DNA of 64,000 bases. It comes from Chloroflexota bacterium (lineage in GTDB: Bacteria > Chloroflexota > Dehalococcoidia > GIF9 > UBA5629). The stretch's first letter is position 1. Each line of letters starts with the position of its first letter. The notes beneath the pieces are model-generated. The model was not told the origin of the DNA. It worked only from the letters and a program-made list of their open reading frames with translations, and searched no databases. Positions 7,157 through 23,402 of this stretch are shown here, in pieces. Made by a program: the position numbers and the translations under genes. The DNA lies in the NCBI GenBank assembly GCA_036821185.1, contig DAISKD010000002.1, forward strand, positions 17,527 to 81,526. The letters are read 5' to 3'.

Positions 7157-8213
7157 CCTCGACGACCTCTCTATATACCAGCGCCTTGACTGCGCCGGGA
7201 TGCTGGCACAGCTAAAAGGGCTGCCCGGACAATGCCGTACTGCCTGGAATAAAGCCATGGCATTTAAGCTACCGGCGGGGTACCGAAATATTGATAAGGT
7301 GGTTATAGTAGGCATGGGCGGCTCGGCCATCGGCGGCGACCTGCTCCGCAGCCTGACGCAGCGCCTTAAAAAACCCCTCATCTCAGTCGTCAGGGACTAC
7401 GACCTTCCACCATGGGTTGACCACAGGACGCTGGTCATCGCCTCCAGCTATTCCGGCAATACCGAGGAAACGATTTCCGCTTTCTCTCAAGCGCTGGACA
7501 TTAAATGTCACAAGCTGGTGCTGACCGGCGGCGGCAAGCTAAAGGAGATGGCAGAGAGGACCAATGTGCCCGTTTTCACCATCGACATCACTTCGCCACC
7601 GCGGGCGGCACTGGGCTATAGCCTGATGCCGCTTATCGCCTTCCTACAACAGCTTGACTTCCTCGAGGACAAGTCCACCGAGGTGGCTGAAATGCTTAGG
7701 GTACTGGAGGAATCATTGCCGAAGTGGGACGAAACCGCACCTGCGAGCTCCAACCTGGCAAAACAGCTTGCCTATAGCCTCCAGGGCAAAATCGCCGTGA
7801 TATATGGCGCCGGCATCCTCAGCGAGGTCGCCCGCCGCTGGAAGACACAGATCAACGAGAACAGCAAAGCCTGGGCATTTTTCGAGGTCTTTCCCGAGTT
7901 AGACCACAATGCAGTGGTGGGCTATGAGATGCCCCGAGAACTGGCTTCAAACATATTCGTCGCCCTGCTCCGCTCCCGCCATCTCCACCCACACACCCTC
8001 ATCCGCTACGAAGTAACTTCCGAGCTACTGACACAGAATGGCATCAGCCACCAATTTGTAGATGCCTACGGGGACAGCGACCTCGCCCAACTGATGGGTC
8101 TAGTCTACCTTGGCGACTGGACAAGCTACTACCTGGCGCTTCTCTATGAAATAGACCCCACCCCAGTCAGAGCCATTGACCACCTCAAAAAGCGCCTCAG
8201 CGAATCAAGGTAG
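7149..8213 (+). CDS. Bifunctional phosphoglucose/phosphomannose isomerase with a SIS domain.
   Basis: A SIS nucleotide-sugar motif (VVIVGMGGSAIGGDLL) is present. The start is reassigned to the ATG at 7149, which overlaps the upstream stop (ATGGCTGA); the ORF-track start at 6999 overlaps the upstream gene. Confidence 0.75.
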   Translation: MADLDDLSIYQRLDCAGMLAQLKGLPGQCRTAWNKAMAFKLPAGYRNIDKVVIVGMGGSAIGGDLLRSLTQRLKKPLISVVRDYDLPPWVDHRTLVIASSYSGNTEETISAFSQALDIKCHKLVLTGGGKLKEMAERTNVPVFTIDITSPPRAALGYSLMPLIAFLQQLDFLEDKSTEVAEMLRVLEESLPKWDETAPASSNLAKQLAYSLQGKIAVIYGAGILSEVARRWKTQINENSKAWAFFEVFPELDHNAVVGYEMPRELASNIFVALLRSRHLHPHTLIRYEVTSELLTQNGISHQFVDAYGDSDLAQLMGLVYLGDWTSYYLALLYEIDPTPVRAIDHLKKRLSESR

Positions 8214-8320
8214 CCGTAAGCCCCTGGGGCACAACCAGTCCCGCTGAGGAACCGGCGGCACACCCTTGATTGACAACTCCCACTGCTTTCTGTAAGCTAG
8301 ATTCTATCAGGCAGGGGGAA

Positions 8321-9631
8321 ATGGTGAAAACGGGAAGGGGGAAGACCAGCAAAAGGGGCTCATCCAGCACCAGCCCTCCACAGATAGGTGTGCCAACTAC
8401 CACTAAGACCAAGCCGGACGAACTTGTCGCTTTGAGCCGCGTTGCCGCAGCCATCAGTGGCATCACTGACCTCGACACCATCCTGCGCGTCGGACTGGAC
8501 ACCGTACTTGCCGTTCTGGACAGAGCCATAGGTGGCATAATGCTGTTGGATGAGGGCACCAGGACCCTCTACTACCGCGTATACCACGGAATATCCGATG
8601 ACTACGCCCAGCAGATGCGCATCCGACTTGGTGAGGGCATCGCCGGAAAGGTGGCTGAGAGCGCCAGAGCGATTATGCTGGCGGACATCTCCCAGAGCCC
8701 GGATGCCATCCACCCCGACCTTATCAGCAAAGAGGGCCTCAAGGCTTTCGTCAGCGTCCCGCTGATGTCTAAAGACAGAGTCCTCGGCGTCATGAACATC
8801 GCCAGCCACCTGCCCCACCAGTTCACCGAAAAGGACATCCACCTTCTTTATGCCACCGGCGACCTGCTCGGTCTGGCAATTGAACAAGCAAGGCTCTACG
8901 AGGAATTGCGCCGGGGCAGGGAGCGTTACCGTCGTTTGGCAAGGTTTGCCCTCATGGCCCAGGAAGACGAACGGAGGAGGATCTCCCGGGAGCTCCACGA
9001 TGAGACCAGCCAGGCACTTTCGGGTCTGGTGCTGAACCTGCAAGCGGTGATCGAAATGCTGGAGATGGTCGGCATCCGGGACAATAGGATCAAGGAGACG
9101 TTGAAGAAGGCGCACGGGCTGGCTGTTGAGGTGGGCAACGAGATCCATCGCCTGATCGTCAATCTCCGTCCCACTCTCCTCGACTCGCTGGGTTTGGTAC
9201 CCGCGCTCCGCCAGCATGCCGAGTCGGTGCTGGCGCCTCTGGGGATAAGTCTTTCCTTCCACTTCGATGAGATTGGCAAGACGATACCAAAAGACGTGGA
9301 AACCAACCTCTTCCGCGTAGCGCAAGGGGCTATAGGCAATATCCAGCAACATTCAAAGGCCACCAGCGCCTCTATCTCGCTGACGGTGGACGGCAATGAC
9401 CTGGTGATGCTCATCAGCGACAACGGTGTCGGCTTCGATGTTTCAGAGATAAAGACGGTGGAGCCCAGCGGGCGGGGTGCTGGCCTGTTCAGCATGAAAG
9501 AGCGGGTGCAGCTCATGGGCGGCAAATGTAATGTGAAGTCACAGCCGGGCAAGGGGACAACGGTCACGGTGCGAATACCGATGCAGTGGAGAACAGGCGA
9601 TGCCAAAGATAAGAGTCCTGGTAGTCGATGA
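8321..9631 (+). CDS. GAF-domain sensor histidine kinase of the HisKA_3/NarX type.
   Basis: Order of domains is GAF, then HisKA_3 H-box (ELHDETSQALSGL), then an HATPase_c G-box (DNGVGFD...GRGAGL). The start was chosen at the ATG after a GGGGGAA RBS; an in-frame TTG at 8270 is an alternative. Confidence 0.8.
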   Translation: MVKTGRGKTSKRGSSSTSPPQIGVPTTTKTKPDELVALSRVAAAISGITDLDTILRVGLDTVLAVLDRAIGGIMLLDEGTRTLYYRVYHGISDDYAQQMRIRLGEGIAGKVAESARAIMLADISQSPDAIHPDLISKEGLKAFVSVPLMSKDRVLGVMNIASHLPHQFTEKDIHLLYATGDLLGLAIEQARLYEELRRGRERYRRLARFALMAQEDERRRISRELHDETSQALSGLVLNLQAVIEMLEMVGIRDNRIKETLKKAHGLAVEVGNEIHRLIVNLRPTLLDSLGLVPALRQHAESVLAPLGISLSFHFDEIGKTIPKDVETNLFRVAQGAIGNIQQHSKATSASISLTVDGNDLVMLISDNGVGFDVSEIKTVEPSGRGAGLFSMKERVQLMGGKCNVKSQPGKGTTVTVRIPMQWRTGDAKDKSPGSR

Positions 9632-10256
9632 CCACGCCATAGTGCGCGATGGCATCTACGCCCTGCTGGGGCTGATGTCAGATATCGAGCTGGTGGGCGA
9701 AGCAGCCAACGGCAGGGAAGCTATAGAAAAGGTGGAAAAGCTGCTGCCAGATGTGGTGCTTATGGACGTCGCCATGCCCCTCATGGACGGACTGGAGGCA
9801 ACGCGCCGCATCTGCAAACAGTTCCCCGGGACCAAGGTGATTGCACTGACCCAGTACGATGACCACGAGTTTGTCTTCCCTATGTTCGAGGCTGGCGCTC
9901 GCGGCTTTATCTGCAAGACCGCCGCCTCCTCTGAGCTGGTCACTGCAATCCGCGCTGTCCACCGCGGCGACTCCTATCTATCACCATCGGTAGCCCGCGT
10001 CTTTGTAGAAAGGTACCAGCAACAGTTTGACTCGATGAGGGAACAAGACCCTTACCGGCAATTGACGGACAGGGAGAGGGAGATCTTGAAGCTACTGGCT
10101 GAAGGCTATACCACCCAGGAGATCGCCAGTATACTGGTGCTCAGCCCCAAGACAGTGGATAGGCACAAGACAAACCTTATGGCCAAGCTCGATATCCATA
10201 ACCGCGCCGACCTCATCAAGTACGCTATACGTAAAGGAATAATCACCCTGTCCTAG
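9600..10256 (+). CDS. LuxR/NarL-family response regulator, REC plus HTH.
   Basis: The receiver has DD...D...K residues (VVDDH, LMDVAMP) and there is a C-terminal LuxR HTH. It overlaps the kinase gene by 32 nt. Confidence 0.85.
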   Translation: MPKIRVLVVDDHAIVRDGIYALLGLMSDIELVGEAANGREAIEKVEKLLPDVVLMDVAMPLMDGLEATRRICKQFPGTKVIALTQYDDHEFVFPMFEAGARGFICKTAASSELVTAIRAVHRGDSYLSPSVARVFVERYQQQFDSMREQDPYRQLTDREREILKLLAEGYTTQEIASILVLSPKTVDRHKTNLMAKLDIHNRADLIKYAIRKGIITLS

Positions 10257-10442
10257 CCCGTTCATTTCCCGGTGCACAAAATTCCGGCGAAATATCAGTA
10301 GCTTCGGCAGCAAAAACTACAGTTTTTCCCGACGTCTTTTGGGGCATTCACCCCTGTGCTTCCTATAAGTAAGCGGCTAAACTTAGGATAAAGGCGTGAC
10401 GCCATGGTGCACCATTCAAGCGCCATGGCAAGGAGGTGGAAA

Positions 10443-11228
10443 ATGGAAGAGAAGAAGCTGAAGGTACTGGTGGTGGACAACGAAGAGGAGTTTATTGCAG
10501 ACGCGATTAAAGCATTGGAAAACTCCGGCTATATGGCACTCTGTGCCCGCTCGCTAGCTGAGGCGCAGGAAATGGTGCGCCGCCACAGACCGGACCTGGT
10601 CATCATCGGCACTATAGAGCCACGCGGCACCGCATTCCAGCTCCACCAGTGGCTGAGAAAGAGCCCTAGCTTCAGCAATGTCCCTCTGGTGGTGGTCGAT
10701 GCCCCTCCGGAGCAGAGGCTCACCAGAGGATGGCACTGGGAGGAGGGTATGCAACTGGAGGCCGAGGACTACTTTCAGAAACCTGTCGAAGTGGAGATGA
10801 TGATGGTCACCGTAAGGAAGGCGCTGGACAGGGCGACGAGAAAAATAAAGGTGCTCATAGTCGATGACCATGTGGTCGTTAGAGAAGGTATCCGCATTTT
10901 GCTCAGCTTGCAACCCGATATCCGGGTGGTGGGTGAAGCGGTCGACGGCACCGAAGCCATACAGAAGGCCCGTGAACTTATGCCCGATATCGTCCTCATG
11001 GACATCGCCATGCCGGGTATGGATGGACTGGAGGCTACCAAGGAATTGACCGAAGAGGGCATACCCTCCAGGGTATTAATGCTAACACAATATGCTGACG
11101 AAGCCAATGTACGTGCCAGTGAGAGAGTGGGTGCCTTTGGCTTCATCCCCAAAAAGACTGCCAGTTCCATGCTGCTCGCCGCCATAAGGGCGGCAGATAA
11201 AGGCGAGCGTATCCCCGTCCCACTCTGA
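10443..11228 (+). CDS. Tandem receiver-domain protein with no output domain; the first REC looks degenerate.
   Basis: REC1 has LVIIGTIEP where the phospho-Asp belongs (Asp replaced by Gly). REC2 has the canonical VDDH...LMDIAMPGMDG...K. There is a strong AGGAGGTGG RBS before the ATG at 10443. Confidence 0.75.
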   Translation: MEEKKLKVLVVDNEEEFIADAIKALENSGYMALCARSLAEAQEMVRRHRPDLVIIGTIEPRGTAFQLHQWLRKSPSFSNVPLVVVDAPPEQRLTRGWHWEEGMQLEAEDYFQKPVEVEMMMVTVRKALDRATRKIKVLIVDDHVVVREGIRILLSLQPDIRVVGEAVDGTEAIQKARELMPDIVLMDIAMPGMDGLEATKELTEEGIPSRVLMLTQYADEANVRASERVGAFGFIPKKTASSMLLAAIRAADKGERIPVPL

Positions 11229-11277
11229 GCGGGCAATAGATTACGACACCAGGCCCCTTGTCAAAGGCGGTGGTGAG

Positions 11278-13947
11278 TTGCAGCCAGTAACGATTACGCT
11301 GGATGGCAATGAGGTAAGCGGCTACGCCGGGATGAGCATCCTGGCCCTGGCGCGAGAGGCAAGAGTTCATATACCCACGCTGTGTCACGATGACCACCTG
11401 CCAGATATAGGCGCTTGCCGTCTGTGCATCGTTGAAGAGGAAAACACCGGTGCTCTTTTGGCGGCTTGTGTCACCCCTATAGCCTCGGGAATGGTGATCA
11501 ATACCCGCTCGCCACGGGTGGTCTCCCACCGCAAGACAATAGTGGAACTCATGCTGGCAAGCCACCCCGATGCCTGCCCAGTGTGCGATAAGGGCAACCG
11601 CTGCAAGCTGAGAGAGTTTGCCGCTGAGATGGGAATATCACCCACCCACTTCCACCGCATACCTCAGGCAGCAACTATTCAGGAGCTCAATCCGTTCGTC
11701 CAGCGCGACTCGAGCAAATGTGTTTTGTGTGCCAAGTGTATCAGGGCCTGCGAGGAACTTGTGGTTGAAGGTGTCCTGGACTACTTCCAGCGGGGCTTTA
11801 AGGCCAAGCCAACAACATTTGGAGACTTACCGCTGGAGGTCTCGGGATGCACCTTCTGCGGTACCTGCGTGACGCTCTGCCCCACCGGTGCCCTGATGGA
11901 AAAGGATGCGCCGTACCGCGGGACAACACGAGAAACGGTGCAGACAACCTGTCCCTTCTGCAGCTGCGGCTGCAGCATTGAACTGGAAGTTAAAGACAAC
12001 CGTGTCGTCCGTTCAACGCCCAGGGAAATAGAGGGCAGCGACTACCGCCCCCTCTGCATCCGGGGGAGCTACGGTTACGATTTCACCCATAGCCCGGAAA
12101 GGCTTACTATGCCCCTCATCAGGCGGGACGGGGATCTGCAGGAGACAAGCTGGGAGGAGGCGCTGAAGCTGGTAGCTGATGAGCTTGAAAGAGTAAAGGA
12201 AAGGTACGGCCCCAATAGTATCGCCGTGCTCGGCTCAGCCCGCTGTACCAACGAAGAAGCCTATTTACTGCAACGGTTTGCCAGGTGCACTATCGGCACC
12301 AATAACGTGGATAGCAGCAGCCGCCTCTATAGCGCCGCCACCATCCTGGGGCTGGCCACCACCATCGGACTGCCCCAACCAGCAAACCAAATAGAGGCGA
12401 TCGAAAGGTCCGATGTAATTATGGTTGTCGGTGCCGATCCCACCACCTCTGCACCAGCAGCAAGCTATGCCATCAAGCGAGCTGTCAAGAGCAAAGGTGC
12501 CTGTTTAATACTGATAGACCCACGCCGCACCAAGCTCGCCTTTTTCGCCACACTCCAGCTGCAGCTAAGACCGGGGACGGACATCGCACTGCTGAACGCC
12601 CTGGCACATGTAATCGTGAAGGAAGACCTGTTGGACAAGGGGTATGTGGTGCGACGCACAGATAATTTTGAGCTATTTGCCAGGTCGCTGGAACAATACA
12701 CCCCGGAATATGCCTCCGGAGTCACCGGTGTCCCCGCCGAGCAAATAGTGGCTGCCGCCAGACTGTATGCTAAGGCAAGGCAGGCTTCCATTATTTATGG
12801 CAACGGTGTAACTCAGTACCCCACCGGGACTGACTGCATTAAGGCAATCGCTAATCTGGCGTTGCTGACCGGCAATGCCGGGCGAAAAGGCGGGGGCATT
12901 ATTTCTCTCCACAGGGAAAGCAACAGCTACGGTGTCATGGCTATGGGACTGTCACCCCGATTGTTCCCCGGGTTCCGCAGCGTGACCGACAAACTGGAAA
13001 GGGAAAGGCTTGAAGTGCTCTGGGGGGTAAAACTACCCGATCCATTGGGGCTGACAGCCCTTGAGATGCTACAGGAGGCAAGATCGGGGAAAATTAGAGC
13101 GCTATACATCTACGGCGAAGACCCCATGTCCAGCTTTCCCGACCGCCATCTGGTCAGCGAAGCCCTCAGCTCGCTGGAACTCCTTGTCGTCCAGGACATC
13201 TTCCTCACCGAGACAGCGAAGCTAGCAGCCGCGGTGCTCCCTGGAACCAGCCCGGCTGAGAAAGATGGTACCACCATAAACTTCGAGGGAAAGATAAGGA
13301 GGTTCCGAAAAGCGGTGGCACCACCCGGTGAGAGTCGCCCCGACTGGCAGATATTGGCCGAGATCGCGTCCAGAATGAAAAGACCGCTGCCGTTCTCCCG
13401 CTTTGAGGACATTGTAACGGAGATGGAGGACTGTATGCCTGGCTATCAGTATTACGGCGGTGAGGGCAAGGAATTCGACATTCAGACCACGGGCAACAAC
13501 CAGCAACCCGTGGAGGAGGCACCACGCGGCTTCCCCCGCTTCTGGCCTGTCGAATATTCTGAAGCTCCCACCCCGGATGACCGCGACTACCCGTTCCTCC
13601 TGCTTACCGGAGGCACTTTCCCTTACGCTAGCAGTAATTTATGGTTGCTCAAAGCACCGAGGCTGAGAAGGTTCCTTTCGCAGGGGTATGCCGAGCTTAG
13701 TCCTGAGGATGCCCGCAGCCTGGGTCTGGGCAACGGTGACCTGGCGAAGGTCACCTCGGCTGCGGGCACAGTGGTGGCCCCGGTAAGGGTGTCAACCGAC
13801 ATGCCACCGGGAATGGTCTTTGTCCCATGCTCATTCCCTGAGATAGCGGTGAACGGGCTTTTCCACATCATACTCGATACACAATCGAAAACACCGGCAT
13901 TTAAGTCCTGCCGGGTGAAGGTCGAAAGGGTGGTTATAAATGACTGA
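11278..13947 (+). CDS. FdhF/FdsA-like molybdopterin oxidoreductase subunit with a NuoG-like N-terminus. The catalytic Sec/Cys position is Tyr, making it SfrA-like.
   Basis: The N-terminus has a 2Fe-2S motif (CHDD...CRLC...C), then 4Fe-4S ferredoxin motifs, then a CPFCSCGC cluster. The molybdopterin domain is closely similar to E. coli FdhF, but the motif reads VDSSSRLYSAATILG where FdhF has VDCCARVUHGPSVAGL. A TTG start is assumed. Confidence 0.8.
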   Translation: MQPVTITLDGNEVSGYAGMSILALAREARVHIPTLCHDDHLPDIGACRLCIVEEENTGALLAACVTPIASGMVINTRSPRVVSHRKTIVELMLASHPDACPVCDKGNRCKLREFAAEMGISPTHFHRIPQAATIQELNPFVQRDSSKCVLCAKCIRACEELVVEGVLDYFQRGFKAKPTTFGDLPLEVSGCTFCGTCVTLCPTGALMEKDAPYRGTTRETVQTTCPFCSCGCSIELEVKDNRVVRSTPREIEGSDYRPLCIRGSYGYDFTHSPERLTMPLIRRDGDLQETSWEEALKLVADELERVKERYGPNSIAVLGSARCTNEEAYLLQRFARCTIGTNNVDSSSRLYSAATILGLATTIGLPQPANQIEAIERSDVIMVVGADPTTSAPAASYAIKRAVKSKGACLILIDPRRTKLAFFATLQLQLRPGTDIALLNALAHVIVKEDLLDKGYVVRRTDNFELFARSLEQYTPEYASGVTGVPAEQIVAAARLYAKARQASIIYGNGVTQYPTGTDCIKAIANLALLTGNAGRKGGGIISLHRESNSYGVMAMGLSPRLFPGFRSVTDKLERERLEVLWGVKLPDPLGLTALEMLQEARSGKIRALYIYGEDPMSSFPDRHLVSEALSSLELLVVQDIFLTETAKLAAAVLPGTSPAEKDGTTINFEGKIRRFRKAVAPPGESRPDWQILAEIASRMKRPLPFSRFEDIVTEMEDCMPGYQYYGGEGKEFDIQTTGNNQQPVEEAPRGFPRFWPVEYSEAPTPDDRDYPFLLLTGGTFPYASSNLWLLKAPRLRRFLSQGYAELSPEDARSLGLGNGDLAKVTSAAGTVVAPVRVSTDMPPGMVFVPCSFPEIAVNGLFHIILDTQSKTPAFKSCRVKVERVVIND

Positions 13948-14422
13948 GCAACTGCTGAATACCAGACTGGACTTAAGGAAGCTGAACGCGATTATCGCCG
14001 AGTATACTGGCCAGCGCTGGTCGCTGATTCCGCTGGTACAGCGGATACAAAACGAGTTCGGCTACATTCCACAGGAGTCAATACCACTAATCGCTCAAGC
14101 CCTCAAGCTGTTCCCCAGCCAGGTACAGGGGGTTATCTCGTTTTACGCCCAGCTCTACACCAAGCCACGGGGGAGAAAGGTGGTCAGGGTCTGCCGTGGC
14201 ACAGCCTGTCATGTGAGGGGCGGAAAAACCATCCTGAAGTTGGTCAAGCAGACTCTAGGAATCGAGGAGGGTGAGACCACCCCAGATATGGAATACACGC
14301 TGGAAACGGTGGCATGCATTGGAGTCTGCGCCCTAGCACCCAACATTGTCATCGATGATAGGGTGTTCGGGCATATGAACCCCAAGAAGGTTGACTATTT
14401 GCTGAAAAGAGGTGGCGAGTAA
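13940..14422 (+). CDS. NuoE/HoxE-like 24-kDa subunit with a thioredoxin-like [2Fe-2S].
   Basis: The CRGTACHVRGG...CIGVCALAP motif is present. The start overlaps the upstream stop. Confidence 0.85.
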   Translation: MTEQLLNTRLDLRKLNAIIAEYTGQRWSLIPLVQRIQNEFGYIPQESIPLIAQALKLFPSQVQGVISFYAQLYTKPRGRKVVRVCRGTACHVRGGKTILKLVKQTLGIEEGETTPDMEYTLETVACIGVCALAPNIVIDDRVFGHMNPKKVDYLLKRGGE

Positions 14423-14423
14423 C

Positions 14424-17400
14424 ATGGGACCACGGATCACTGTGCTCGTCTGTCAGGGTACAGGCTGCATTTCCAGTAGGTCAGACGCTGTGTACACCGC
14501 ATTCCAGGAACAGGTGACAGCACTGGGCCTAGCGAATGTGAAAGTGGACTTTACCGGATGCCACGGCTTTTGCGAGCAGGGACCAAATGTGGTCATCGAG
14601 CCCGAAGGCATATTCTACACCCATGTTCAAGTGGACGATGTCCCCGAAATCGTCAGTTCCCACCTCCGTGACGGCATAGCGGTCGAGCGCCTGTTCTACC
14701 GGGACCCCCTAAGTGGCAAACCTATCCCGCACTACTCCGAAATCAATTTCTACGCCAAGCAGCAGCGTGTCATCCTGAACAACTGCGGTCACATCAACCC
14801 CGAAAGCATCGAGGACTACATCAACAGCGGTGGCTTCCGCGCCCTGCGCAAAGCCCTGCTGGAGATGACACCGGAGCAGGTCATCGAAGAGGTAAAAGAG
14901 TCCGGCCTGCGCGGGCGCGGGGGCGCCGGCTTCCCCACCTGGCGAAAGTGGGAGTTCTGCCGTAGTGCCCTAGGAAGCCAGAAGTACGTCATCTGCAACG
15001 CCGATGAGGGAGACCCCGGCGCCTTTATGGACCGTTCCATACTTGAGGCCGACCCCTATGCTGTCATCGAGGGGCTCACCATCGCCGGCTATGCCATCGG
15101 GGCAACCCAGGGCTACATCTATGTAAGGGCTGAATACCCTCTTGCAGTCAGCAGGGTGCGCCACGCAGTAGAGCGCTGTCGGGAAAAGGGATACCTTGGC
15201 AGCAATATCCTCGGCTCCGGCTTCAATTTCACCATCGAGATCAAAGAGGGTGCCGGTGCCTTCGTCTGTGGCGAGGAGACAGCGCTAATAGCCTCCATTG
15301 AGAGCCGTCGAGGCATGCCCCGTCCCCGCCCACCTTTCCCGGCACAATCAGGCCTTGATGGAAAGCCCACCATTATCAACAATGTGAAGACCTTAGCCTC
15401 CGTACCATTGATCATCGCCAACGGCGCCAAATGGTATGCCAGCATCGGCACCGAGAAGAGCAAAGGTACAGCCGTTTTCGCCTTGACCGGGAAGGTGGCA
15501 AACAGCGGGCTGGTCGAGGTGCCCATGGGCACACCTCTCTCCACCATTATCTTCGACATCGGCGGCGGCATCCCCCGAGGTAAGCGGTTCAAAGCGGTAC
15601 AGACCGGGGGGCCCTCGGGAGGTTGCATCCCGGCACAGTTCCTTGATACGCCCGTGGACTATGAAAACCTTGCCAGGCTGGGCTCCATCATGGGCTCCGG
15701 CGGCATGGTGGTGATGGATGAGACTACCTGTATGGTGGAGGTCGCCCGTTACTTCCTCAGCTTCACCCAGATGGAGTCCTGTGGCAAATGTGTCCCCTGC
15801 CGGCTGGGAACAAGGCAGATGCTGGAGATTCTCACCAGAATTACGCAGGGCAAAGGACGCGATAGCGACATCGATACCTTGCTCGCCCTGGCCAGAACGG
15901 TGAAAGAATGCTCACTCTGCGGACTAGGGCAGACCTGCCCCAACCCCGTCCTCACCACGCTCACCTACTTCCGGGATGAGTACGAAGCCCACATTAAAGA
16001 GAAAAAGTGCCCGGCGGCGGTGTGCGATGCCTTGATGATCTCCCCCTGCCAGCACACCTGCCCCGTGGGCATCAACATACCGAAATATGTTGCCCACATC
16101 GCCGCCGGTGAATACTTCGAATCGATAGAGACCGTCAGAGAAAGAAATCCCTTTCCCGCCATCTGCGGTCGTATCTGCCACCATCCCTGCGAGGGCAGGT
16201 GCCGGCGCGGCGAACTGGACGAACCGGTGGCCATCAGGGCGCTGAAAAGATTTGTCGCCGACTGGTATTTTGAGCGTATCGATGAGTTACCTCCACCACA
16301 GCCATTCCCCAGGACGAAGAAGGAAAAGGTGGCAGTCATCGGCGCTGGTCCCTGCGGCCTCTCCTGCGCCTATTTCCTGGCACAAATGGGCTACGGGGTC
16401 ACCGTCTTCGAGGCTGCCGCAGTGGGCGGCGGCATGCCAGCGGTGGCAATACCCGACTTCCGCCTCCCACGGGAAGTCATAGATAAAGAGATCGACTATA
16501 TCGTGAAGCGGGGGGTGGAGATAAGGTACAATACGCCGCTTAATGCCAGCTTCACCATAGAACACCTGCGGTCCAGCGGCTATGACGCCGTGTTCATCGC
16601 CGCCGGGGCACAGAAAAGTCAGACAATCGGCATACCCGGTGAAAGTGAAGCCCTTTCTGGCTTCTATTACGGTCTGAAGTTCCTGCGCGATGTCAAACTT
16701 GGTAGGCAGTTAAAAGTGGGGCGGCGGGTAGCAGTCATCGGCGGCGGTAACGTCGCCCTCGATGCCTCACGCACTGCCCTCCGCCTCGGCGCAGAAGAGG
16801 TCAACGTCTACTACCGCCGCTCCCGCGAGGAGATGCCGGTGACCGAGGTCGAGTTCAACGAAGCAGTGGCTGAAGGTATCAAAATCCACTTTCTCGTCGG
16901 CCCCACCCGGATCGTCAGCCGGGACAGCAGTGTGGCTGGCCTACAGTGCGTTCGTATGAAGCTGGGTGAGCCCGACGAGAGCGCCCGTAGAAAGCCCATC
17001 CCTATCCCCGGATCAGAGTTCTTCGTCGAAGCAGATACCGTCATCGCCGCGGTAGGACAGGCAGCCGACCTCTCCTTCCTGCCACCTGACAGCGCCCTGG
17101 AGCGCAGCCGATGGGAGAGGCTGGTGGTCGACTCTAATACGCTGAGTACAAATGTGCCCGGTGTCTTCGCCGGTGGCGACTTCGTCTTCGGTCCTGGGAT
17201 GATAATCGATGCCATCGCCAGCGGTAGAAGGGGGGCACTAGCCATCGATAAGTACCTTAGAAATGATACTACGCGGGTGCATATGTACGACACAAAAGAG
17301 CCGGGCACCAGACCAGCAGAAAAGCCTACTACGGAGGAGGAAGAGACCTGGCAGGTTGCCTTCAGACCAAGACCACCCACGCTCCCTATCGAGATGAGGA

Positions 17401-17492
17401 AACGGAGCTTCCAGGAGACCGAGCTCGGGCTTTCCGAAGAGCAGGCTAGGTACGATGCTAGGCGGTGCCTGCGGTGCGACCTGGAGAGTTAG
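14424..17492 (+). CDS. Fusion protein: NuoE-like 2Fe-2S domain, NuoF-like NADH/FMN/4Fe-4S module, 2x[4Fe-4S] ferredoxin, and a GltD/NfnB-like FAD-NAD(P)H oxidoreductase. It is SfrB-like.
   Basis: Motifs seen are CQGTGC...CHGFC, GAGAFVCGEETALI with ESCGKCVPCR (NuoF N3), a CxxCxxCxxxCP pair, a GltD N-terminal cluster (CGRICHHPCEGRC), GxGxxG twice (VIGAGPCG and VIGGGNVALD), and FAGGD. Confidence 0.8.
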   Translation: MGPRITVLVCQGTGCISSRSDAVYTAFQEQVTALGLANVKVDFTGCHGFCEQGPNVVIEPEGIFYTHVQVDDVPEIVSSHLRDGIAVERLFYRDPLSGKPIPHYSEINFYAKQQRVILNNCGHINPESIEDYINSGGFRALRKALLEMTPEQVIEEVKESGLRGRGGAGFPTWRKWEFCRSALGSQKYVICNADEGDPGAFMDRSILEADPYAVIEGLTIAGYAIGATQGYIYVRAEYPLAVSRVRHAVERCREKGYLGSNILGSGFNFTIEIKEGAGAFVCGEETALIASIESRRGMPRPRPPFPAQSGLDGKPTIINNVKTLASVPLIIANGAKWYASIGTEKSKGTAVFALTGKVANSGLVEVPMGTPLSTIIFDIGGGIPRGKRFKAVQTGGPSGGCIPAQFLDTPVDYENLARLGSIMGSGGMVVMDETTCMVEVARYFLSFTQMESCGKCVPCRLGTRQMLEILTRITQGKGRDSDIDTLLALARTVKECSLCGLGQTCPNPVLTTLTYFRDEYEAHIKEKKCPAAVCDALMISPCQHTCPVGINIPKYVAHIAAGEYFESIETVRERNPFPAICGRICHHPCEGRCRRGELDEPVAIRALKRFVADWYFERIDELPPPQPFPRTKKEKVAVIGAGPCGLSCAYFLAQMGYGVTVFEAAAVGGGMPAVAIPDFRLPREVIDKEIDYIVKRGVEIRYNTPLNASFTIEHLRSSGYDAVFIAAGAQKSQTIGIPGESEALSGFYYGLKFLRDVKLGRQLKVGRRVAVIGGGNVALDASRTALRLGAEEVNVYYRRSREEMPVTEVEFNEAVAEGIKIHFLVGPTRIVSRDSSVAGLQCVRMKLGEPDESARRKPIPIPGSEFFVEADTVIAAVGQAADLSFLPPDSALERSRWERLVVDSNTLSTNVPGVFAGGDFVFGPGMIIDAIASGRRGALAIDKYLRNDTTRVHMYDTKEPGTRPAEKPTTEEEETWQVAFRPRPPTLPIEMRKRSFQETELGLSEEQARYDARRCLRCDLES

Positions 17493-17500
17493 GAGGTGCC

Positions 17501-18148
17501 ATGAAATCCATAACCAGACAGAAACCGTTCGAAGAGATCGCCGGACAACTCCGTGGCTTCAGCCGTATCTTCATCGCCGGTTGCGGTACCTGTGCCACCC
17601 TGACCCACACCGGCGGGGTAGAGGAGGTGGCAGCTATGAAGGAAAAGCTGGAGTCGGAAGGCAAGTTTGTCACCGGCTCTATAGTTATCCCGGTCGCCTG
17701 CGACGACATCACCGAGACGCTGGCAGGCGAGCACGAGGGCTCCATACTCAGCGCCCATGCCATACTGGTGATGGCGTGCGCCCTGGGCGTGCACAGGATA
17801 GCCAACAACGCATTCAACAAGCCGGTCATCCCCGCACTGGACACACTGTTCATCGGCATGGACTATGGACAAGGGGTGTTCCACGAGGTCTGTGCCCAAT
17901 GCGGTCAATGTGTTCTGGGCGAAATGGCCGGCATCTGCCCCATTACCGCCTGCCATAAAGGGCTGCTCAACGGTCCCTGCGGCGGCACCAATAACGGGAA
18001 GTGTGAGGTGGACAAGGAGAAAGACTGCGCCTGGACGCTCATCTACAACCGACTTAAGGATCAAGGCAGGCTCGATATGATGCGAAAATACCAGCGACCC
18101 AAGAATTATCAGGTCGTTCCCAGGCCACGGACTATCAAGGTGTTCTGA
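17501..18148 (+). CDS. metV: MetV-like protein: the Cys-rich Fe-S partner of methylene-THF reductase, containing the MTHFR C-terminal-like domain.
   Basis: About 215 aa with clustered Cys (CGTCATL; CAQCGQCVLGEMAGICPITACHKGLLNGPCGG). An AGGAGGTG RBS precedes it, and it lies directly upstream of metF as in acetogen metVF. Confidence 0.7.
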   Translation: MKSITRQKPFEEIAGQLRGFSRIFIAGCGTCATLTHTGGVEEVAAMKEKLESEGKFVTGSIVIPVACDDITETLAGEHEGSILSAHAILVMACALGVHRIANNAFNKPVIPALDTLFIGMDYGQGVFHEVCAQCGQCVLGEMAGICPITACHKGLLNGPCGGTNNGKCEVDKEKDCAWTLIYNRLKDQGRLDMMRKYQRPKNYQVVPRPRTIKVF

Positions 18149-18174
18149 GGCAGTCTAAAGAAGCGAGGTGGAAT

Positions 18175-19059
18175 ATGCCTTCAAAGTTTAAACAAGCGCT
18201 CGACTCCAATAAGTTCGTCATCACCAGTGAGATAGGCCCACCTAAGGGGACAAACCTGGAGAAGATGTACCACCACATCGACCTGCTTAAAGATAAGGTT
18301 GATGCCCTCAACGTCACCGACCACCAGAGCTCCGTCATGCGCTTTCCCTCCATCGGTGGTTGTCTAGCTATAAAAGAGCACGGCGGTGAGCCCATCTTGC
18401 AGATGACCTGCCGCGACCGCAACCGTTTGGCACTTCAGGCAGAACTCCTCTTCGCCTACACCAGAGGGATCAGGAATGTCCTCTGTCTCACCGGCGATGC
18501 CGTGCCCGTGGGCGACCACAAGGAAGCTAAAGGCGTCTTCGACCTCGACTCCGTGCAGTTGCTCCGGACGATACGGACACTGGAATCAGGAAAGGACGTC
18601 GGTGGAAATGACCTCGATGGTGCTGTGGAGTTCTGCGCCGGCGCTACCGTCACCCCAGAGGCAAACCCCATCGAACCACAGCTGATCAAATTCGAGAAAA
18701 AAGTGGAGGCTGGCGCCGAGTTCTTCCAGACACAGGCAATCTACGACCTGGACAAATTCGCCAAATTCATGCAGTTTGCTCGTCAGTTCCCTGTGAAAAT
18801 CCTCGCCGGCATCGTTCTGCTCTCTTCAGCTAGAATGGCAAAATACATGACAGAAAATGTACCCGGTATCTTCGTCCCTCAATACCTAATAGACGAGCTG
18901 GCAAACGCGCCCAAAGGCATGGCGCTTAACAAAGGCATCGAGATAGCTGGCAGGATGATAGCCACCATAAAGAAAGAGGGTATCTGCGACGGTGTCCACA
19001 TCATGGCTATCGGCAGGGAGGAGGTCGTCCCGGATATCATCCAGGCAGCTGGTATTTGA
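18175..19059 (+). CDS. metF: 5,10-methylenetetrahydrofolate reductase.
   Basis: A 294-aa MetF-like TIM barrel with typical N-terminal motifs (ITSEIGPPKG...) and a flavin-binding region. Confidence 0.85.
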   Translation: MPSKFKQALDSNKFVITSEIGPPKGTNLEKMYHHIDLLKDKVDALNVTDHQSSVMRFPSIGGCLAIKEHGGEPILQMTCRDRNRLALQAELLFAYTRGIRNVLCLTGDAVPVGDHKEAKGVFDLDSVQLLRTIRTLESGKDVGGNDLDGAVEFCAGATVTPEANPIEPQLIKFEKKVEAGAEFFQTQAIYDLDKFAKFMQFARQFPVKILAGIVLLSSARMAKYMTENVPGIFVPQYLIDELANAPKGMALNKGIEIAGRMIATIKKEGICDGVHIMAIGREEVVPDIIQAAGI

Positions 19060-19311
19060 TATTGATCCAGAGGGGCTCTACCGGCGACCCTATACCCACT
19101 TCATTCCACAGGACCCGCCTGCACGTTTTAGCGTCCGGTATAAAAGACCGAGCTAAAACATAGCCGCGAATGCGACGATGCCCATATATGGTATACCGTG
19201 GAAAATCCAGCAGGCACGCCCTTGCCTTTTGCATAGTCGCCAGCTAATCTATCTGTAGTCATAACATGCTTAATATCTCAACGATAGCTTTAAAGGGGCT
19301 GTTTTAGAGCG

Positions 19312-20034
19312 GTGCGGAGAGTCCTCAACATCGCCCATAGAGGTTTTACCAGGGTTTTTCCGGACAATTCCCTAGAGTCTCTGGACGCGGCTATCGAGAT
19401 AGGCGTTGATGGTGTGGAATTCGATGTTCGGGAGACCTCCGATAAAAATTTCGTCGTCTTCCATGATCCGAAGCTGCACGGCACCAGTATCAGGGAGCTG
19501 ACGCTGGCACAATTGCAGGGCGTAAAGCTGGAAGGAAAATACAAAATTCCCACACTGGAAGAAGTACTTCGCCTCTGCGGCAATCGTACCAGGCTGTTCA
19601 TTGAACTGAAGGCTGTGGAATCGTTTCCACGGCTGGTGGAGGTCCTGAGGTCAGAAGCACCGCTTTCCGATATCATGCTGCTATCTTTTAGCAGGGCTTT
19701 GCTTACCGAAGCCTTGTACCTGGCGCCAGACATTCCCAGGGCTATTATCGTTACATCTCCGGGAAAGAGTCCGCTGCAACTGATGGAATCGGTGCAGGCT
19801 GACGCTATTGTCGCCAGGTACCCGTTTGGGGGCAGAAAATTGGTCGAGGCGGTCCATGGGGTCGGCCGGGCTATCTTCGTCTGGGGCCTGCCATTACCTT
19901 GTTGTATCAACGGTGTTGTCAAGATGGATGTGGACGGTATCATCTCGGACTTCCCCGATGCGGTGGGGAAAAAGCTCAGCGAAAAGTTGTTGATCTGTCA
20001 AGCAGACGACCAAAAACCACCCAAACCAGAATAA
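19312..20034 (+). CDS. Glycerophosphodiester phosphodiesterase family protein.
   Basis: Carries GDPD catalytic motifs (HRG...E.D). A GTG start is assumed. Confidence 0.75.
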   Translation: MRRVLNIAHRGFTRVFPDNSLESLDAAIEIGVDGVEFDVRETSDKNFVVFHDPKLHGTSIRELTLAQLQGVKLEGKYKIPTLEEVLRLCGNRTRLFIELKAVESFPRLVEVLRSEAPLSDIMLLSFSRALLTEALYLAPDIPRAIIVTSPGKSPLQLMESVQADAIVARYPFGGRKLVEAVHGVGRAIFVWGLPLPCCINGVVKMDVDGIISDFPDAVGKKLSEKLLICQADDQKPPKPE

Positions 20035-20184: not shown

Positions 20185-20415
20185 ATCGGCGGACTTTGCA
20201 TAGAAAGGGGGTGACGCTATGGTTGTCCTGCATCGGCGGGTATGATTCGACCCGTTGACGGTGCACGTAGTGCACCACCACAGAGCCGCTGCACAGGAAG
20301 CCAGCAACGCCACCCCAACCCCAGATACCTGCTGAAGCTCCCGCTGGGCACCTCGCGTTGTTATGCTTCCCGGACAGCGGGCAAAACCATAACAACGAAG
20401 GAGGTGCTGATTTCA

Positions 20416-21519
20416 ATGAATGCTTTCTCGCGCTTTCTTATGTCCCGATGGGGACCGATCATTACTGGTGCCGTCGTAGGTATACTTGCACCCATTCTGG
20501 TGAAGCTGGGCAACCCTGGCAACATGGGGCTATGCATGGTCTGCTTCACCCGCGATATTGCCGGGGCACTGGGGCTGCACCGTGCTGCGGCTGTGCAGTA
20601 CATCAGGCCCGAAATCATCGGGCTCTTCTTCGGTGCCCTCACCAGTGCGCTCGCCTTCGGTGAATTCAAGCCGCGCACCGGCTCAGCCCCGCTGGTGCGT
20701 TTCCTGCTGGGCGTGTTCGCTTCGTTCGGCGCGCTGCTGTTCCTTGGCTGTCCCTGGCGCGCCTATCTCAGGTTGGCTGGCGGCGACTGGAACGCCATCC
20801 TTGCCATCCTCGGTCTCATCGCCGGCATCGGCATCGGTATCGGCTTCCTAAAAATGGGCTACAGCCTGGGGCGTAACCACCCCGCCCCTAAGGCTCTGGG
20901 CTGGATAATGCCCGCGATTATGCTTGCCCTGCTGGTGCTGCTGGCACTCGCTCCACAGTTCGGCCGTGATGCCTCGGGGAACCCCACCGGCCCTATCTTC
21001 TTCTCAGAAAAGGGTCCGGGCAGCCAGCACGCACCGATTATTGTCAGCATCATCGTGGGGCTTATAATAGGTTTCCTTGCTCAGCGGAGCCGCTTCTGTA
21101 CCGTGGGTGCTATACGCGATGTCATCTTGCTCCGCGACTCACGCCTGCTTAACGGTATATTAGCGTTCATTGTCCTCGCTTTCCTTACCAACCTGATATT
21201 GGGTCAGTTCCATCCCGGCTTTGCCAACCAGCCGGTGTCGCACACCAATGCCCTGTTCAACTTCGGCGGCATGGTGCTGGCAGGGCTGGCATTCACCCTG
21301 GCAGGCGGCTGCCCAGGAAGGCAGCTTTTCCTCTCGGGTGAGGGCGATGCCGATGCTGCCATGTTCGTCATCGGTATGATAGTCGGAGCCGGCTTTGCCC
21401 ACACCTACAGCGTTGCCGCCACAGCAAACGGCCCGTCTGCCTTCAGCGCACTCGCTCTGGTCGTGGGTTTGGTCATCTGCATTATCATCGGCCTGACCAT
21501 GCGAGAGAGAAAGGTTTAG
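20416..21519 (+). CDS. YeeE/YedE family membrane protein (thiosulfate or selenium transporter-like).
   Basis: Polytopic membrane protein with two Cys motifs (GLCMVCFT and GGCPGRQL). A GGAGGTG RBS precedes the ATG at 20416. Confidence 0.8.
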   Translation: MNAFSRFLMSRWGPIITGAVVGILAPILVKLGNPGNMGLCMVCFTRDIAGALGLHRAAAVQYIRPEIIGLFFGALTSALAFGEFKPRTGSAPLVRFLLGVFASFGALLFLGCPWRAYLRLAGGDWNAILAILGLIAGIGIGIGFLKMGYSLGRNHPAPKALGWIMPAIMLALLVLLALAPQFGRDASGNPTGPIFFSEKGPGSQHAPIIVSIIVGLIIGFLAQRSRFCTVGAIRDVILLRDSRLLNGILAFIVLAFLTNLILGQFHPGFANQPVSHTNALFNFGGMVLAGLAFTLAGGCPGRQLFLSGEGDADAAMFVIGMIVGAGFAHTYSVAATANGPSAFSALALVVGLVICIIIGLTMRERKV

Positions 21520-21529
21520 GAGGTAGTCA

Positions 21530-21745
21530 ATGAGCGAAACTTTAGATTGTCGCGGCCTGTCCTGTCCCCAGCCAGCGATGCTCGCCCGCCAGGCGCTGCA
21601 GAAGCTCGGTAAAGGTACGTTGGAGGTGCTGGTAGACTCACCCACAGCGCGTGAGAACGTCTCCCGCCTGGCAAGAGATGCTGGCTGGCAGGTGGACATC
21701 CAGCAACAGCCCGATGGAAGTGTTAAACTGGTACTGAGTAAATGA
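21530..21745 (+). CDS. TusA-like sulfurtransferase.
   Basis: A 71-aa protein with the CPxP motif (LDCRGLSCPQP). Confidence 0.8.
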   Translation: MSETLDCRGLSCPQPAMLARQALQKLGKGTLEVLVDSPTARENVSRLARDAGWQVDIQQQPDGSVKLVLSK

Positions 21746-22890
21746 TCTACCTGGACAACGCTGCCACCTCCTGGCCCAAACCGCCAGAGGTATTGAAAGC
21801 TATGACCGACGTTCTGGAACGCTCCGGGGGTAACCCCGGGCGTTCCGGACACAGGCTGTCTATCGAGGCGGCAAGGATGATATATCAGACCAGAGAGGAC
21901 ATCGCCGAGTTTTTCAATTCCGGCGACCCGTTGGGCGTCATCTTCACCAGCAATGCCACCCATGCCCTTAACCTCGCTATTTATGGAGTCCTCCGCCCCG
22001 GCGACCGTGTGGTCACCACTTCCATGGAGCACAACTCGGTGATGCGCCCGCTGCGCCGCCTGGAAAAGAAAGGTGTGAAGCTACAGGTCGTCCCCTGCGC
22101 CAGGGATGGCACCGTTGATCTGGCAGAGATGGCGAAGGTGGTAACGCCAAGGACAAAGCTTGTAATTAGCGTTTTTGCCAGCAATGTGGTCGGCACCATT
22201 ATGCCGATAAAAGAGATCGCCGACATCGCCCATAGGGCCGGTGCCCTGTTCCTCGTCGATGCCGCCCAGGCGGCTGGCGCCCTGCCCATAGACATTCAGG
22301 GGCTAGCCATCGACCTTTTTGCCTTTACCGGGCACAAAGCGCTGCTGGGCTCACCTGGCAGCGGTGGTCTGGTGATTCGATCAGGCGTTGATGTCTCACA
22401 GATAGAACCACTGATGCGGGGTGGCACCGGAAGCCAGTCCGAGCTTGAGGAACACCCCGAATTCCTTCCTGACAAGTTCGAGAGCGGGACCCCCAATCTG
22501 GTGGGCATCGCCAGCTTGCAGGCCGGGATAAGATGGCTGAGGCAAAGGGGAATGGACGCCATCCGCGAACGTGAGAAGGACCTTACCCGCCGGTTTATCG
22601 AGGGGCTGTCACAGATACCAGGCATCAAAATTTATGGTACACTTGACGCCGAAAGATGCGTTGCCATAGTCTCTTTTACCGTGGAGGGCAAGACGGTGTC
22701 TGAAATTGGGATGAGGCTCGACGAGGAGCATGATGTGCTGGTACGGGTGGGCTTGCACTGTGCCCCAGCAGCCCACAGGACGATCGGCTCTTTCCCCGAG
22801 GGCACCGTGCGGCTAGCGCCAGGCATCTTCACCACGCTCGCTGAGGTGGAGACTGCGCTTCGAGCCATAGCCAGGGTGATCAGGTCATGA
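21742..22890 (+). CDS. Class V aminotransferase: cysteine desulfurase or selenocysteine lyase-like.
   Basis: A PLP fold with the PLP lysine in FTGHKALLG. The start overlaps the tusA stop (ATGA). Confidence 0.8.
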   Translation: MIYLDNAATSWPKPPEVLKAMTDVLERSGGNPGRSGHRLSIEAARMIYQTREDIAEFFNSGDPLGVIFTSNATHALNLAIYGVLRPGDRVVTTSMEHNSVMRPLRRLEKKGVKLQVVPCARDGTVDLAEMAKVVTPRTKLVISVFASNVVGTIMPIKEIADIAHRAGALFLVDAAQAAGALPIDIQGLAIDLFAFTGHKALLGSPGSGGLVIRSGVDVSQIEPLMRGGTGSQSELEEHPEFLPDKFESGTPNLVGIASLQAGIRWLRQRGMDAIREREKDLTRRFIEGLSQIPGIKIYGTLDAERCVAIVSFTVEGKTVSEIGMRLDEEHDVLVRVGLHCAPAAHRTIGSFPEGTVRLAPGIFTTLAEVETALRAIARVIRS

Positions 22891-23111
22891 GATACGGAGT
22901 GATACTTTTCCACACCACCTCGGCAGCGATGCAGGCGGAGAGGCTGCTATCTAAAGCCGGACTGAAAGTGAAGCTCATTCCAACACCACGCCAGTTCTCC
23001 AGCGACTGCGGCATCGCCCTCCGCTTTGACTGGGAACAGAAAGGAGAGGTGGAATCGCTGCTCGCCTCAAACAAGGTGGACACCGCTGCTCTCCATCAGA
23101 TGGAAGGGTAA
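22887..23111 (+). CDS. DUF3343-like small protein, a putative S/Se carrier.
   Basis: A 74-aa protein coupled by ATGA overlap. Its size and position next to YedE, TusA and a desulfurase match the known DUF3343 neighbourhood. Confidence 0.6.
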   Translation: MRYGVILFHTTSAAMQAERLLSKAGLKVKLIPTPRQFSSDCGIALRFDWEQKGEVESLLASNKVDTAALHQMEG

Positions 23112-23129
23112 AACAGGCAGGGGACTGAA

Positions 23130-23402
23130 TTGAAGGTAAAGAATAATGCTTTGAAAATCAACCTTGCTGACAATGTTGCCATCGCCATACGCGAAATAAA
23201 GAAGGGCGAGCCGGTGATAATAGACGACACAGAAATGTGCGTGGCAGCTGAGGATATACCCGCCAGCCACAAGATAGCCCTGGAGCCGATCGCCGTGGGT
23301 AGGCCGGTCGTCCGATATGGCGAACCAATTGTGGTGGCTACCGATGACATCGCTGTGGGACAGTGGGTGCACCTGCACAACACCAGGCCCGTAGAAGGTT
23401 AA
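23130..23402 (+). CDS. SAF-domain small subunit of a split UxaA-type lyase (SuyA-like).
   Basis: A 90-aa protein homologous to the altronate dehydratase N-terminal SAF domain. A TTG start is assumed. Confidence 0.65.
   Translation: MKVKNNALKINLADNVAIAIREIKKGEPVIIDDTEMCVAAEDIPASHKIALEPIAVGRPVVRYGEPIVVATDDIAVGQWVHLHNTRPVEG

Follow-up and report, generated by a model that had tools for sequence, protein, structure and literature searches.

Four types of methylene-tetrahydrofolate (methylene-THF) reductase (MTHFR) are usually listed, namely, MetF by itself, MetVF, MetVF-RnfC2, and HdrABC-MvhD-MetVF (PMC9430772). Yi et al. (2021, Microbiol Spectr) described a further arrangement, in which metFV is preceded by NuoEFG homologues in Dethiosulfatarculus sandiegensis. 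According to the accessible text of that paper, the arrangement is found "widely in Desulfobacterales and Chloroflexi", was unstudied, and was speculated to represent a bifurcating "X type" (PMC8515935); the same text places X-type MetFV, including that of D. sandiegensis, in a phylogenetic group of its own (group III). No later characterization of the X-type enzyme was found in the openly accessible literature, and neither MetF nor methylene-THF appears in the survey of the Bfu family (PMC9304861). In the present study, we analyzed a 64,000-nucleotide stretch (the window) of contig DAISKD010000002.1 from a Chloroflexota bacterium, in which five genes at 11278-19059 form an operon that ends in metV and metF. 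The predicted proteins suggest that this operon is most likely a Chloroflexota (Dehalococcoidia-like) example of the X-type MetVF methylene-THF reductase.

An earlier description of this DNA, made from its letters alone (the sequence-only reading), considered the pairing of MetVF with such a module to be undescribed. This claim has to be withdrawn. Yi et al. had already reported the arrangement, as noted above, and in Sporomusa ovata stnABC is located directly downstream of metVF, in the order hdrCBA-mvhD-metVF-stnABC (PMC7483475). The pairing is on record, and the locus belongs to a named, uncharacterized MTHFR type; it is not a first description. In both the X type and the present locus, NuoE/F/G homologues are located directly 5' of metV-metF in Chloroflexi, and a new, possibly bifurcating MTHFR was proposed. 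However, the accessible description of the X type speaks of a "NuoEFG homolog" only. It does not mention the full-length but dead formate dehydrogenase (FDH), the NfnL/GltD fusion in place of the ferredoxin-like C-terminus, or the sensor-kinase/regulator cassette seen here, and D. sandiegensis was compared by description only.

Two characterized systems share features with the operon. In MetVF-RnfC2 of Acetobacterium woodii (3S/type III), the MetVF core is made NADH-dependent by a co-encoded NuoF-family flavoprotein (PMC9430772, PMC8515935). However, RnfC2 consists of one subunit, the N-terminus of which resembles MetV, whereas the input module of the present locus comprises three proteins with two nucleotide sites and an extended series of Fe-S clusters. 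HdrABC-MvhD-MetVF (6S/type IV) of Moorella, Sporomusa, and marine Chloroflexi likewise combines MetVF with a multi-flavin/Fe-S module, and bifurcation is suspected; however, its input module, HdrA/MvhD, is unrelated to the Bfu/NuoEFG module described here.

The five-gene operon and its formate dehydrogenase-like subunit

The operon comprises the following features, with the evidence for each in parentheses.

11278..13947, plus strand: gene 1 ("FdhL", BfuA/FdsA-like, 889 aa; Pfam and NCBIfam domains, FdsA alignment)
12328..12333, plus strand: Tyr351-Ser352 codons TAT AGC at the Sec/Cys-His site of gene 1 (sequence and FdsA alignment)
13940..14422, plus strand: gene 2 (NuoE/BfuC-like, 160 aa; Pfam, NCBIfam, Cys motif)
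14412..17492, plus strand: gene 3, BfuB/HydB-type NuoF fused to an NfnL/GltD-type domain (Pfam, NCBIfam, PDB-chain matches)
16038..17492, plus strand: NfnL/GltD-like domain in gene 3, residues ~543-1026 (Pfam, PDB-chain matches, motifs)
17501..18148, plus strand: gene 4, MetV (215 aa; PF12225)
18175..19059, plus strand: gene 5, MetF (294 aa), catalytic subunit of a MetVF-type methylene-THF reductase (PF02219)

All five co-directional open reading frames (ORFs) of the sequence-only reading are present, and searches of Pfam and NCBIfam upheld its domain assignments for genes 1-5. The tight junctions that it reported also stand, except at the start of gene 3. Genes 1 and 2 overlap by 8 nt, ATGACTGA (read from the sequence). 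The stop codon of gene 3 (TAG, 17490-17492) is separated by 8 nt from the ATG of metV (17501), with GGAGG ahead of metV, and the stop codon of metV (18146-18148) is separated by 26 nt from the ATG of metF (18175), with GAGGTGG ahead of metF. The probable start of gene 3 is the ATG at 14424, 1 nt past the stop codon of gene 2, which gives a protein of 1022 aa (homologues, 1019-1022 aa). The alternative start, GTG at 14412, overlaps gene 2 by 11 nt and gives 1026 aa. The earlier description of gene 3 as a 1026-aa fusion of NuoE-like, NuoF, and GltD domains is thus correct in its domains, but its length is probably 1022 aa. The JGI call for this gene (1000 aa) begins too far downstream, such that two cysteines of the N-terminal [2Fe-2S] site, Cys14 and Cys19, are lost. 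A longer metV ORF, which starts at GTG 17465, was discarded as a product of the way ORFs were listed. When 8000-19500 was scanned for promoters and terminators, the number of sites did not exceed that in shuffled sequence, and no site was located between the genes. Searches of the window for Rfam families and tRNAs had no hits, and no SAM/THF riboswitch that would hint at anabolic control was detected.

Gene 1 contains the Pfam domains Fer2_4, NADH-G_4Fe-4S_3, two Fer4, Molybdop_Fe4S4, Molybdopterin, and Molydop_binding. These correspond to an N-terminal [2Fe-2S] cluster, a His/Cys3 [4Fe-4S] cluster, two ferredoxin-type [4Fe-4S] clusters, and the [4Fe-4S] cluster of the Mo domain. The ligands of all five clusters are invariant across 31 homologues (53-100% identity), and the A-cluster chain by which BfuA is recognized is complete. 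Gene 1 is ~40% identical over its full length to FdsA of Rhodobacter capsulatus, and its best matches in the PDB are FdsA-type formate dehydrogenases. In comparison with Fdh-Bfu/FdsABG, its full-length identity to the alpha subunit is 40-43%, and genes 2 and 3 correspond to the gamma and beta subunits. However, these enzymes keep the catalytic Sec/Cys, His, and Arg, and the beta subunit of the present locus has an additional NADPH domain.

The catalytic residues are replaced in gene 1. The CARVCH motif of FdsA is SRLYSA, with Cys changed to Tyr351 and His to Ser352, and the catalytic Arg motif PLRGQNN is SLHRESN, with His545 at the position of Arg. At the Sec/Cys position, 29 of the 31 homologues have Tyr, one has Arg, and one has Cys; none keeps the catalytic His (Ser or Asn instead), and the Arg position is occupied by Gln or His. 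In distant X-type loci from the metagenome scan, the position of Tyr351 is Gln, His, Arg, Ala, Gly, Ser, or a gap, which argues against Tyr being a conserved new ligand. True Bfu-FDHs from the same scans retain CAR[LT](U/C)H and RGQNN(VQ), and many contain an in-frame TGA. Gene 1 has no in-frame TGA, as previously noted, and the codon at its Sec/Cys position is TAT (12328-12330). The FDH equivalog model TIGR01591 scores it at 614.9, which is under the cutoff of 666.25. We concluded from these residues that the predicted FDH-type active site of gene 1 is destroyed and that genes 1-3 do not encode a formate dehydrogenase. The loss of the catalytic residues of FDH extends across the family, as seen in the alignments, the 31 homologues, and the distant loci. 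FdhL also evolves fastest among the five proteins (54-64% identity, vs 74-88% for gene 3 and MetF). The combination of invariant Fe-S ligands and fast evolution fits an electron wire or scaffold, not a catalyst.

Homologues of gene 1 in public data are routinely labeled "formate dehydrogenase alpha subunit" despite the loss of all catalytic residues. This mis-annotation distorts metabolic reconstructions of Dehalococcoidia metagenome-assembled genomes (MAGs).

Genes 2-5 and their relation to the Bfu/Nfn family

Gene 2 is a 2Fe-2S_thioredx protein (PF01257, 160 bits) in which Cys85, 90, 126, and 130 provide the C1 [2Fe-2S] site of BfuC. Gene 3 consists of Complex1_51K and NADH_4Fe-4S domains followed by Fer4_20 and Pyr_redox_2. 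Its residues 8-542 match HydB of the NiFe-Bfu enzyme (7t2r_B) at 791 bits and ~65% identity, and its first 542 residues match NfnB/StnB at about the same identity. The FMN/NADH motifs and the [4Fe-4S] cluster B1 are kept, and Cys14, 19, 50, and 54 align to the N-terminus of HydB, which indicates that the thioredoxin-like B5 [2Fe-2S] site is present. The B2 site (C440/T478/H527/C533/C538) aligns to C438/C476/H525/C531/C536 of 7t2r_B and agrees with BfuB. This site, the His of which is absent from non-bifurcating homologues, is the feature by which Schut et al. separate bifurcating BfuB from non-bifurcating NuoF homologues (PMC9304861).

The alignment of gene 3 to HydB/NfnB stops at ~542, and no pair of CxxCxxCxxxCP motifs follows; the ferredoxin-like B3/B4 domain is absent from the protein. 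According to the accessible part of a structural study, this domain forms part of the ferredoxin-binding site in solved Nfn-Bfu structures (PMC12018979). Its place is taken by an NfnL-like domain with two [4Fe-4S] sites (Cys546, 550, 585, 589, 593, 597, 1019, and 1022), a GxGxxG motif for FAD, and a GGGNVA…YRRS motif of the NADP type. This domain matches NfnA of NfnABC (9bov_A) at 413 bits and NfnSL (4ylf_B) at 327 bits. The Pfam domains and the motifs bear out the first proposal, that gene 3 combines an FMN-containing site for NADH with an FAD-containing site for NADPH. The FMN/NAD(H) site and the FAD/NADP(H) site are thus carried by one 1022-aa fusion protein.

Classical NfnA, found in Firmicutes and at other loci in the genome scan, aligns as gene 1 (residues 1-100), gene 3 (545-1022), and gene 1 again (103-723). 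All the domains of NfnABC/StnABC (PDB 8oh5, 9bov, 9n5u) are therefore present here, including an Fdh/NuoG-like domain that lacks a catalytic center in both, and the NADP-type second dinucleotide motif is shared (motif criterion: PMC7483475). However, NfnL is inserted in the A subunit of NfnABC, between the positions of gene 1 residues ~100 and ~103, whereas it is located at the C-terminus of the B subunit here and replaces B3/B4. The Fdh-like domain is also full length and closer to real FDHs here, whereas homologues of NfnA align only to ~723; FdhL is 40-43% identical to real FDH-type BfuA vs 27-35% to the Fdh-like part of NfnA. A further difference from NfnABC is that MetVF is always attached in operons of the type seen here. 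Based on these alignments, we conclude that genes 1-3 are a domain-permuted module of the Bfu/Nfn type, in which the NADPH domain has left the A subunit and now forms the C-terminal part of the B subunit.

This assignment refines the label "SfrAB-like/NuoEF-like" of the sequence-only reading. The label was fair as a first description, but the placement of NfnL and the alignments to HydB and NfnA make Bfu family (NfnABC/StnABC-like) the precise one. Geobacter SfrAB, which we compared by description (the sequence-only reading and PMC7483475), shares an FDH-like subunit without a catalytic residue and a GltD-like NADPH subunit; however, it has neither NuoE/NuoF nor MetVF, whereas NuoE/NuoF-like parts are present here and set the module apart from SfrAB.

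Genes 4 and 5 are predicted to be a MetVF-type methylene-THF reductase and not the NAD(P)H-binding type of Escherichia coli. MetV (PF12225, 123 bits) has 12 Cys residues and the sequence LLNGPCGG, which contains the NGPCGG motif, and a search of the PDB did not reveal a solved relative of it. MetF matches PF02219 at 149.6 bits, whereas its score with TIGR00676, the NAD(P)H-type model, is only 80.9 vs a cutoff of 293.7; its matches to the E. coli, Thermus, and human MTHFR structures are distant (~50 bits). The MetF clade is sharply separated, with cluster representatives at 80% and 67% identity and then at ≤52%. The nearest MetF outside the clade (67% identical) is in an hdrA-hdrA-mvhD-metV-metF-hdrC-like cluster (L089, 1-6162). 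Other contexts were a stand-alone metF (L090), folD-metF-gcv (L092), and metF with glycine-cleavage, OFOR, and folD genes and a distant metV (L091). None of these four loci (L089-L092), which were the contexts of MetF representatives with 47-67% identity and were inspected for an X-type locus of Desulfobacterota, was of the X type. MetVF swaps partners between loci, from Hdr-type to stand-alone and folD/gcv contexts. A Fer4_20/Pyr_redox_2 (GltD/NfnL-like) gene follows the cluster in L089, such that an NADPH-type module again occurs near MetVF in a different architecture.

The fused core of gene 3 also occurs with other partners. In an Armatimonadia MAG (L005, 6640-12002), NuoE and a NuoF::NfnL core are located beside the [FeFe]-hydrogenase HydA. 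A Pirellulaceae MAG (L063, 7356-11941) encodes a 1255-aa NuoE-NuoF-NfnL triple fusion and a 209-aa BfuA with Fe-S clusters only. In L132 (1-4912) and L149 (1020-10718), the NuoF::NfnL fusion is beside intact Sec-FDH alpha subunits (CARL-U-H, RGQNN). The pairing of the core with HydA, an FeS-only BfuA, or a Sec-FDH indicates that the BfuA side carries a variable catalytic partner. The Sec-FDH form of L132 and L149 is likely the ancestral, catalytically active module, and the fusions of L005 and L063 may be NADP-linked Bfu variants without the usual ferredoxin domain. Since the same core is found beside intact Sec-FDHs and an [FeFe]-hydrogenase elsewhere, MetVF looks like a new catalytic head on an electron wire. 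The X-type operon accordingly looks like a fused Fdh-Bfu with a decayed FDH site, for which MetVF was recruited as the catalytic end.

Conservation of the block and proposed electron input of MetVF

The block FdhL–NuoE–NuoF::NfnL–MetV–MetF was found in 21 complete independent loci with unrelated flanks: eight genome or metagenome loci from protein look-ups and a genome scan, and 13 from a metagenome scan that took the FdhL alignment as its seed and also gave three loci ending inside metV/metF. The species-level genome scan detected the block in three Chloroflexota MAGs, in one of which the contig ends upstream of nuoE. Every contig looked up via homologues of gene 3 or gene 1 contained the block, with FdhL identity down to 54%. 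Over all the block loci, the lowest identities are 35% for FdhL, 56% for gene 3, and 72% for MetF; some lineages in the metagenome scan have gene 3 at 56-61% and MetF at 72-79%. The operon is flanked by a PGM/PGI gene and a GDPD gene here and by PaaX, OAD/POR, P-type ATPase, or peptidase genes at other loci. In L087, an integrase island of 3.4 kb (a phage-type integrase and three small ORFs, 6696-9371) is located between the double-receiver gene described below and FdhL, and the five-gene block is intact. Dead FdhL and the fusion without metVF were not found among the 21 complete loci. The recurrence of this gene order is far beyond chance. The linkage to metVF, for which the sequence-only reading had proposed a survey of gene neighborhoods, is conserved and not incidental. 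Among the matches listed, there are at least 120 close homologues each of gene 1 (at least 53% identity) and gene 3 (at least 77%), mostly from sediment and groundwater Chloroflexota; the named relatives are Chloroflexota/Dehalococcoidia MAGs. The window itself belongs to a JGI metagenome contig of 115 kb.

We cautiously favor the interpretation that MetVF receives electrons from NAD(P)H through the module of genes 1-3. The domain and cofactor-site assignments, the dead FDH site, the conserved synteny, the modularity of the fused core, and the partner swapping around MetVF, including the NADH entry by RnfC2 in A. woodii, support it, and Yi et al. came to this view from gene order (PMC8515935). 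MetF and MetV would form a catalytic core without a pyridine-nucleotide site of its own and would receive electrons from the co-encoded Bfu-type module. Electrons from NADH and/or NADPH would enter at FMN and/or FAD and pass through the cluster chain of BfuA and the clusters of MetV to the flavin of MetF, which would reduce methylene-THF; flow in the reverse direction would correspond to the oxidation of methyl-THF. The dead FDH domain would serve as a scaffold and wire, with MetVF as the recruited catalytic head.

The gene 3 protein retains the bifurcation signatures of BfuB, and its ferredoxin domain is replaced by an NADPH domain. We therefore speculate that energy coupling may occur, in which the exergonic reduction of methylene-THF would drive an uphill step, such as the reduction of NADP+ or ferredoxin. 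The data agree equally well with a plain dual-cofactor NAD(P)H:methylene-THF oxidoreductase. A specific form of coupling, in which NADP(H) at the FAD of NfnL takes the low-potential arm of ferredoxin (2 NADH + methylene-THF + NADP+ ⇌ 2 NAD+ + methyl-THF + NADPH), appears improbable. If it were true, the exergonic MTHFR step would make NADPH by ferredoxin-independent bifurcation in the forward direction. In the reverse direction, NADPH would drive the unfavorable oxidation of methyl-THF with NAD+, the step that classically limits the Wood-Ljungdahl pathway on thermodynamic grounds when it runs in reverse.

Several points weigh against a direct electron input from genes 1-3. The spacer between gene 3 and metV is 8 nt here vs 38-144 nt in the orthologues, which leaves room for separate regulation. 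StnABC of S. ovata, although encoded beside metVF, purifies alone as an NADPH:ferredoxin/NAD+ transhydrogenase (PMC7483475), and MetVF of the same organism purifies as a heterodimer (PMC9430772). In vitro, purified MetVF enzymes take reduced ferredoxin (PMC9430772 and the accessible text of PMC8515935); therefore, electrons could pass between two separate enzymes on a diffusible carrier. Since the B3/B4 domain is missing, Bfu-style bifurcation to ferredoxin cannot be assumed and is less certain. Furthermore, gene 1 keeps the C-terminal pterin-capping domain (PF01568), which makes a bound pterin with another role possible.

Some of these points fit an explanation with two co-transcribed enzymes, which we regard as possible, although rather unlikely. 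Genes 1-3 would be a permuted transhydrogenase of the NfnABC/Stn type that keeps NADH, NADPH, and possibly ferredoxin in balance, MetVF would be an independent ferredoxin-dependent (2S-type) enzyme, and the two would share an operon only on account of their roles in C1 and redox metabolism. The separate purification of Stn with Nfn activity, the spacers of up to 144 nt, and the presence of every NfnABC domain, including the dead Fdh-like one, all favor this explanation, as does the use of reduced ferredoxin and not NAD(P)H by MetVF of S. ovata and Clostridium ljungdahlii (PMC9430772 and the accessible text of PMC8515935). The fusion of L063 with its FeS-only BfuA also exists without a catalytic partner. 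However, the dead-FdhL module never occurs without metVF in the 21 complete loci, which are widely divergent. An Nfn reaction that produces ferredoxin would need another docking site because B3/B4, the ferredoxin site of NfnABC in the accessible part of PMC12018979, is absent. FdhL is also nearer to FDH-type BfuA than to the Fdh-like part of NfnA (see above), and, as far as the accessible text of Yi et al. goes (PMC8515935), X-type MetFV is a phylogenetic group of its own.

It is very unlikely that gene 1 has kept a Mo/W-pterin in its FDH-like domain with which it converts or senses another substrate, such that a second redox reaction is coupled to MetVF. The full four-domain molybdopterin fold, including Molydop_binding, is kept beyond the point (~723) at which homologues of NfnA cease to align, many residues of the Mo domain are invariant in the 31 homologues, and Tyr351 is at least 90% conserved in the main clade. 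However, none of the three catalytic residues of FDH is preserved, the variability at the Tyr351 position in distant X-type loci argues against a conserved metal ligand, and the fast evolution of FdhL fits a scaffold or wire. The reading of genes 1-3 as a genuine NAD(P)+-dependent formate dehydrogenase, grouped in one operon with a second enzyme of the Wood-Ljungdahl methyl branch, was named as a refuting result in the sequence-only reading and matches the best PDB hits of gene 1 and the calls of annotation pipelines, but it is extremely improbable and was rejected on the active-site residues (Sec/Cys to Tyr, His to Ser, and Arg to His), all three of which true FDHs in the same scans keep, and the TIGR01591 score is under the trusted cutoff.

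Neighboring genes and implications for C1 metabolism

A regulatory cassette is located upstream of the operon.

8270..9631 (JGI call starts 8390), plus strand: GAF + HisKA_3 sensor histidine kinase (Pfam)
9600..10256, plus strand: NarL/LuxR-type response regulator, REC + GerE (Pfam, NCBIfam); beside the kinase in all main-clade loci
10404..11228, plus strand: double-receiver (REC-REC) protein without an output domain (Pfam); ends 49 nt before gene 1

In the main Chloroflexota clade, the kinase, NarL-type regulator, and double-receiver protein are always upstream of the operon. The GAF-HisKA_3 kinase gene is also upstream in L082, L084, L086, L087, and L088, and the double-receiver protein is 49-70% identical in orthologous loci. 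A second X-type lineage has PAS-type kinases and regulators instead of the GAF kinase cassette. In this lineage (L139, 3211-4086; L113, L119, L120, L123, L127, and L159), a divergent paralogue resembling MetF is encoded directly 5' of the dead FDH gene; it is 29-31% identical to MetF and matches PF02219 at only 57 bits.

Genes for S-adenosylhomocysteine hydrolase and SAM synthetase (3237-5718 of the window, plus strand) are located 5.5 kb upstream of the operon. They are not conserved in orthologous loci and, thus, give no firm hint of an anabolic role. A selenium-handling cluster (20242-24568, plus strand) is located just downstream. It encodes a YedE-family selenium transporter (TIGR04112, 473 bits), a TusA-like protein, a class-V aminotransferase of the cysteine desulfurase/selenocysteine lyase type, Se_S_carrier (PF11823), and SAF and GD_AH-like proteins. 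This cluster is curious beside an FDH relic that lost Sec. A tandem pair of glycyl-radical enzymes (823 and 836 aa; PFL2/glycerol-dehydratase/HypD-like) is also encoded in the window, together with a radical-SAM activase (51315-57515, minus strand).

The electron source of MetVF and energy conservation at the most exergonic step of the Wood-Ljungdahl pathway are long-standing questions. The partner modules studied to date are none, RnfC2, and HdrABC-MvhD, and the NuoEFG type has been mentioned once. The present study adds that the X type is abundant, that its architecture is strictly conserved and always includes an NADPH domain, and that it is built on a fossil FDH. This defined architecture, with its fossil FDH, NADPH fusion, and lost ferredoxin domain, provides a concrete five-gene construct for an old question in C1 bioenergetics.

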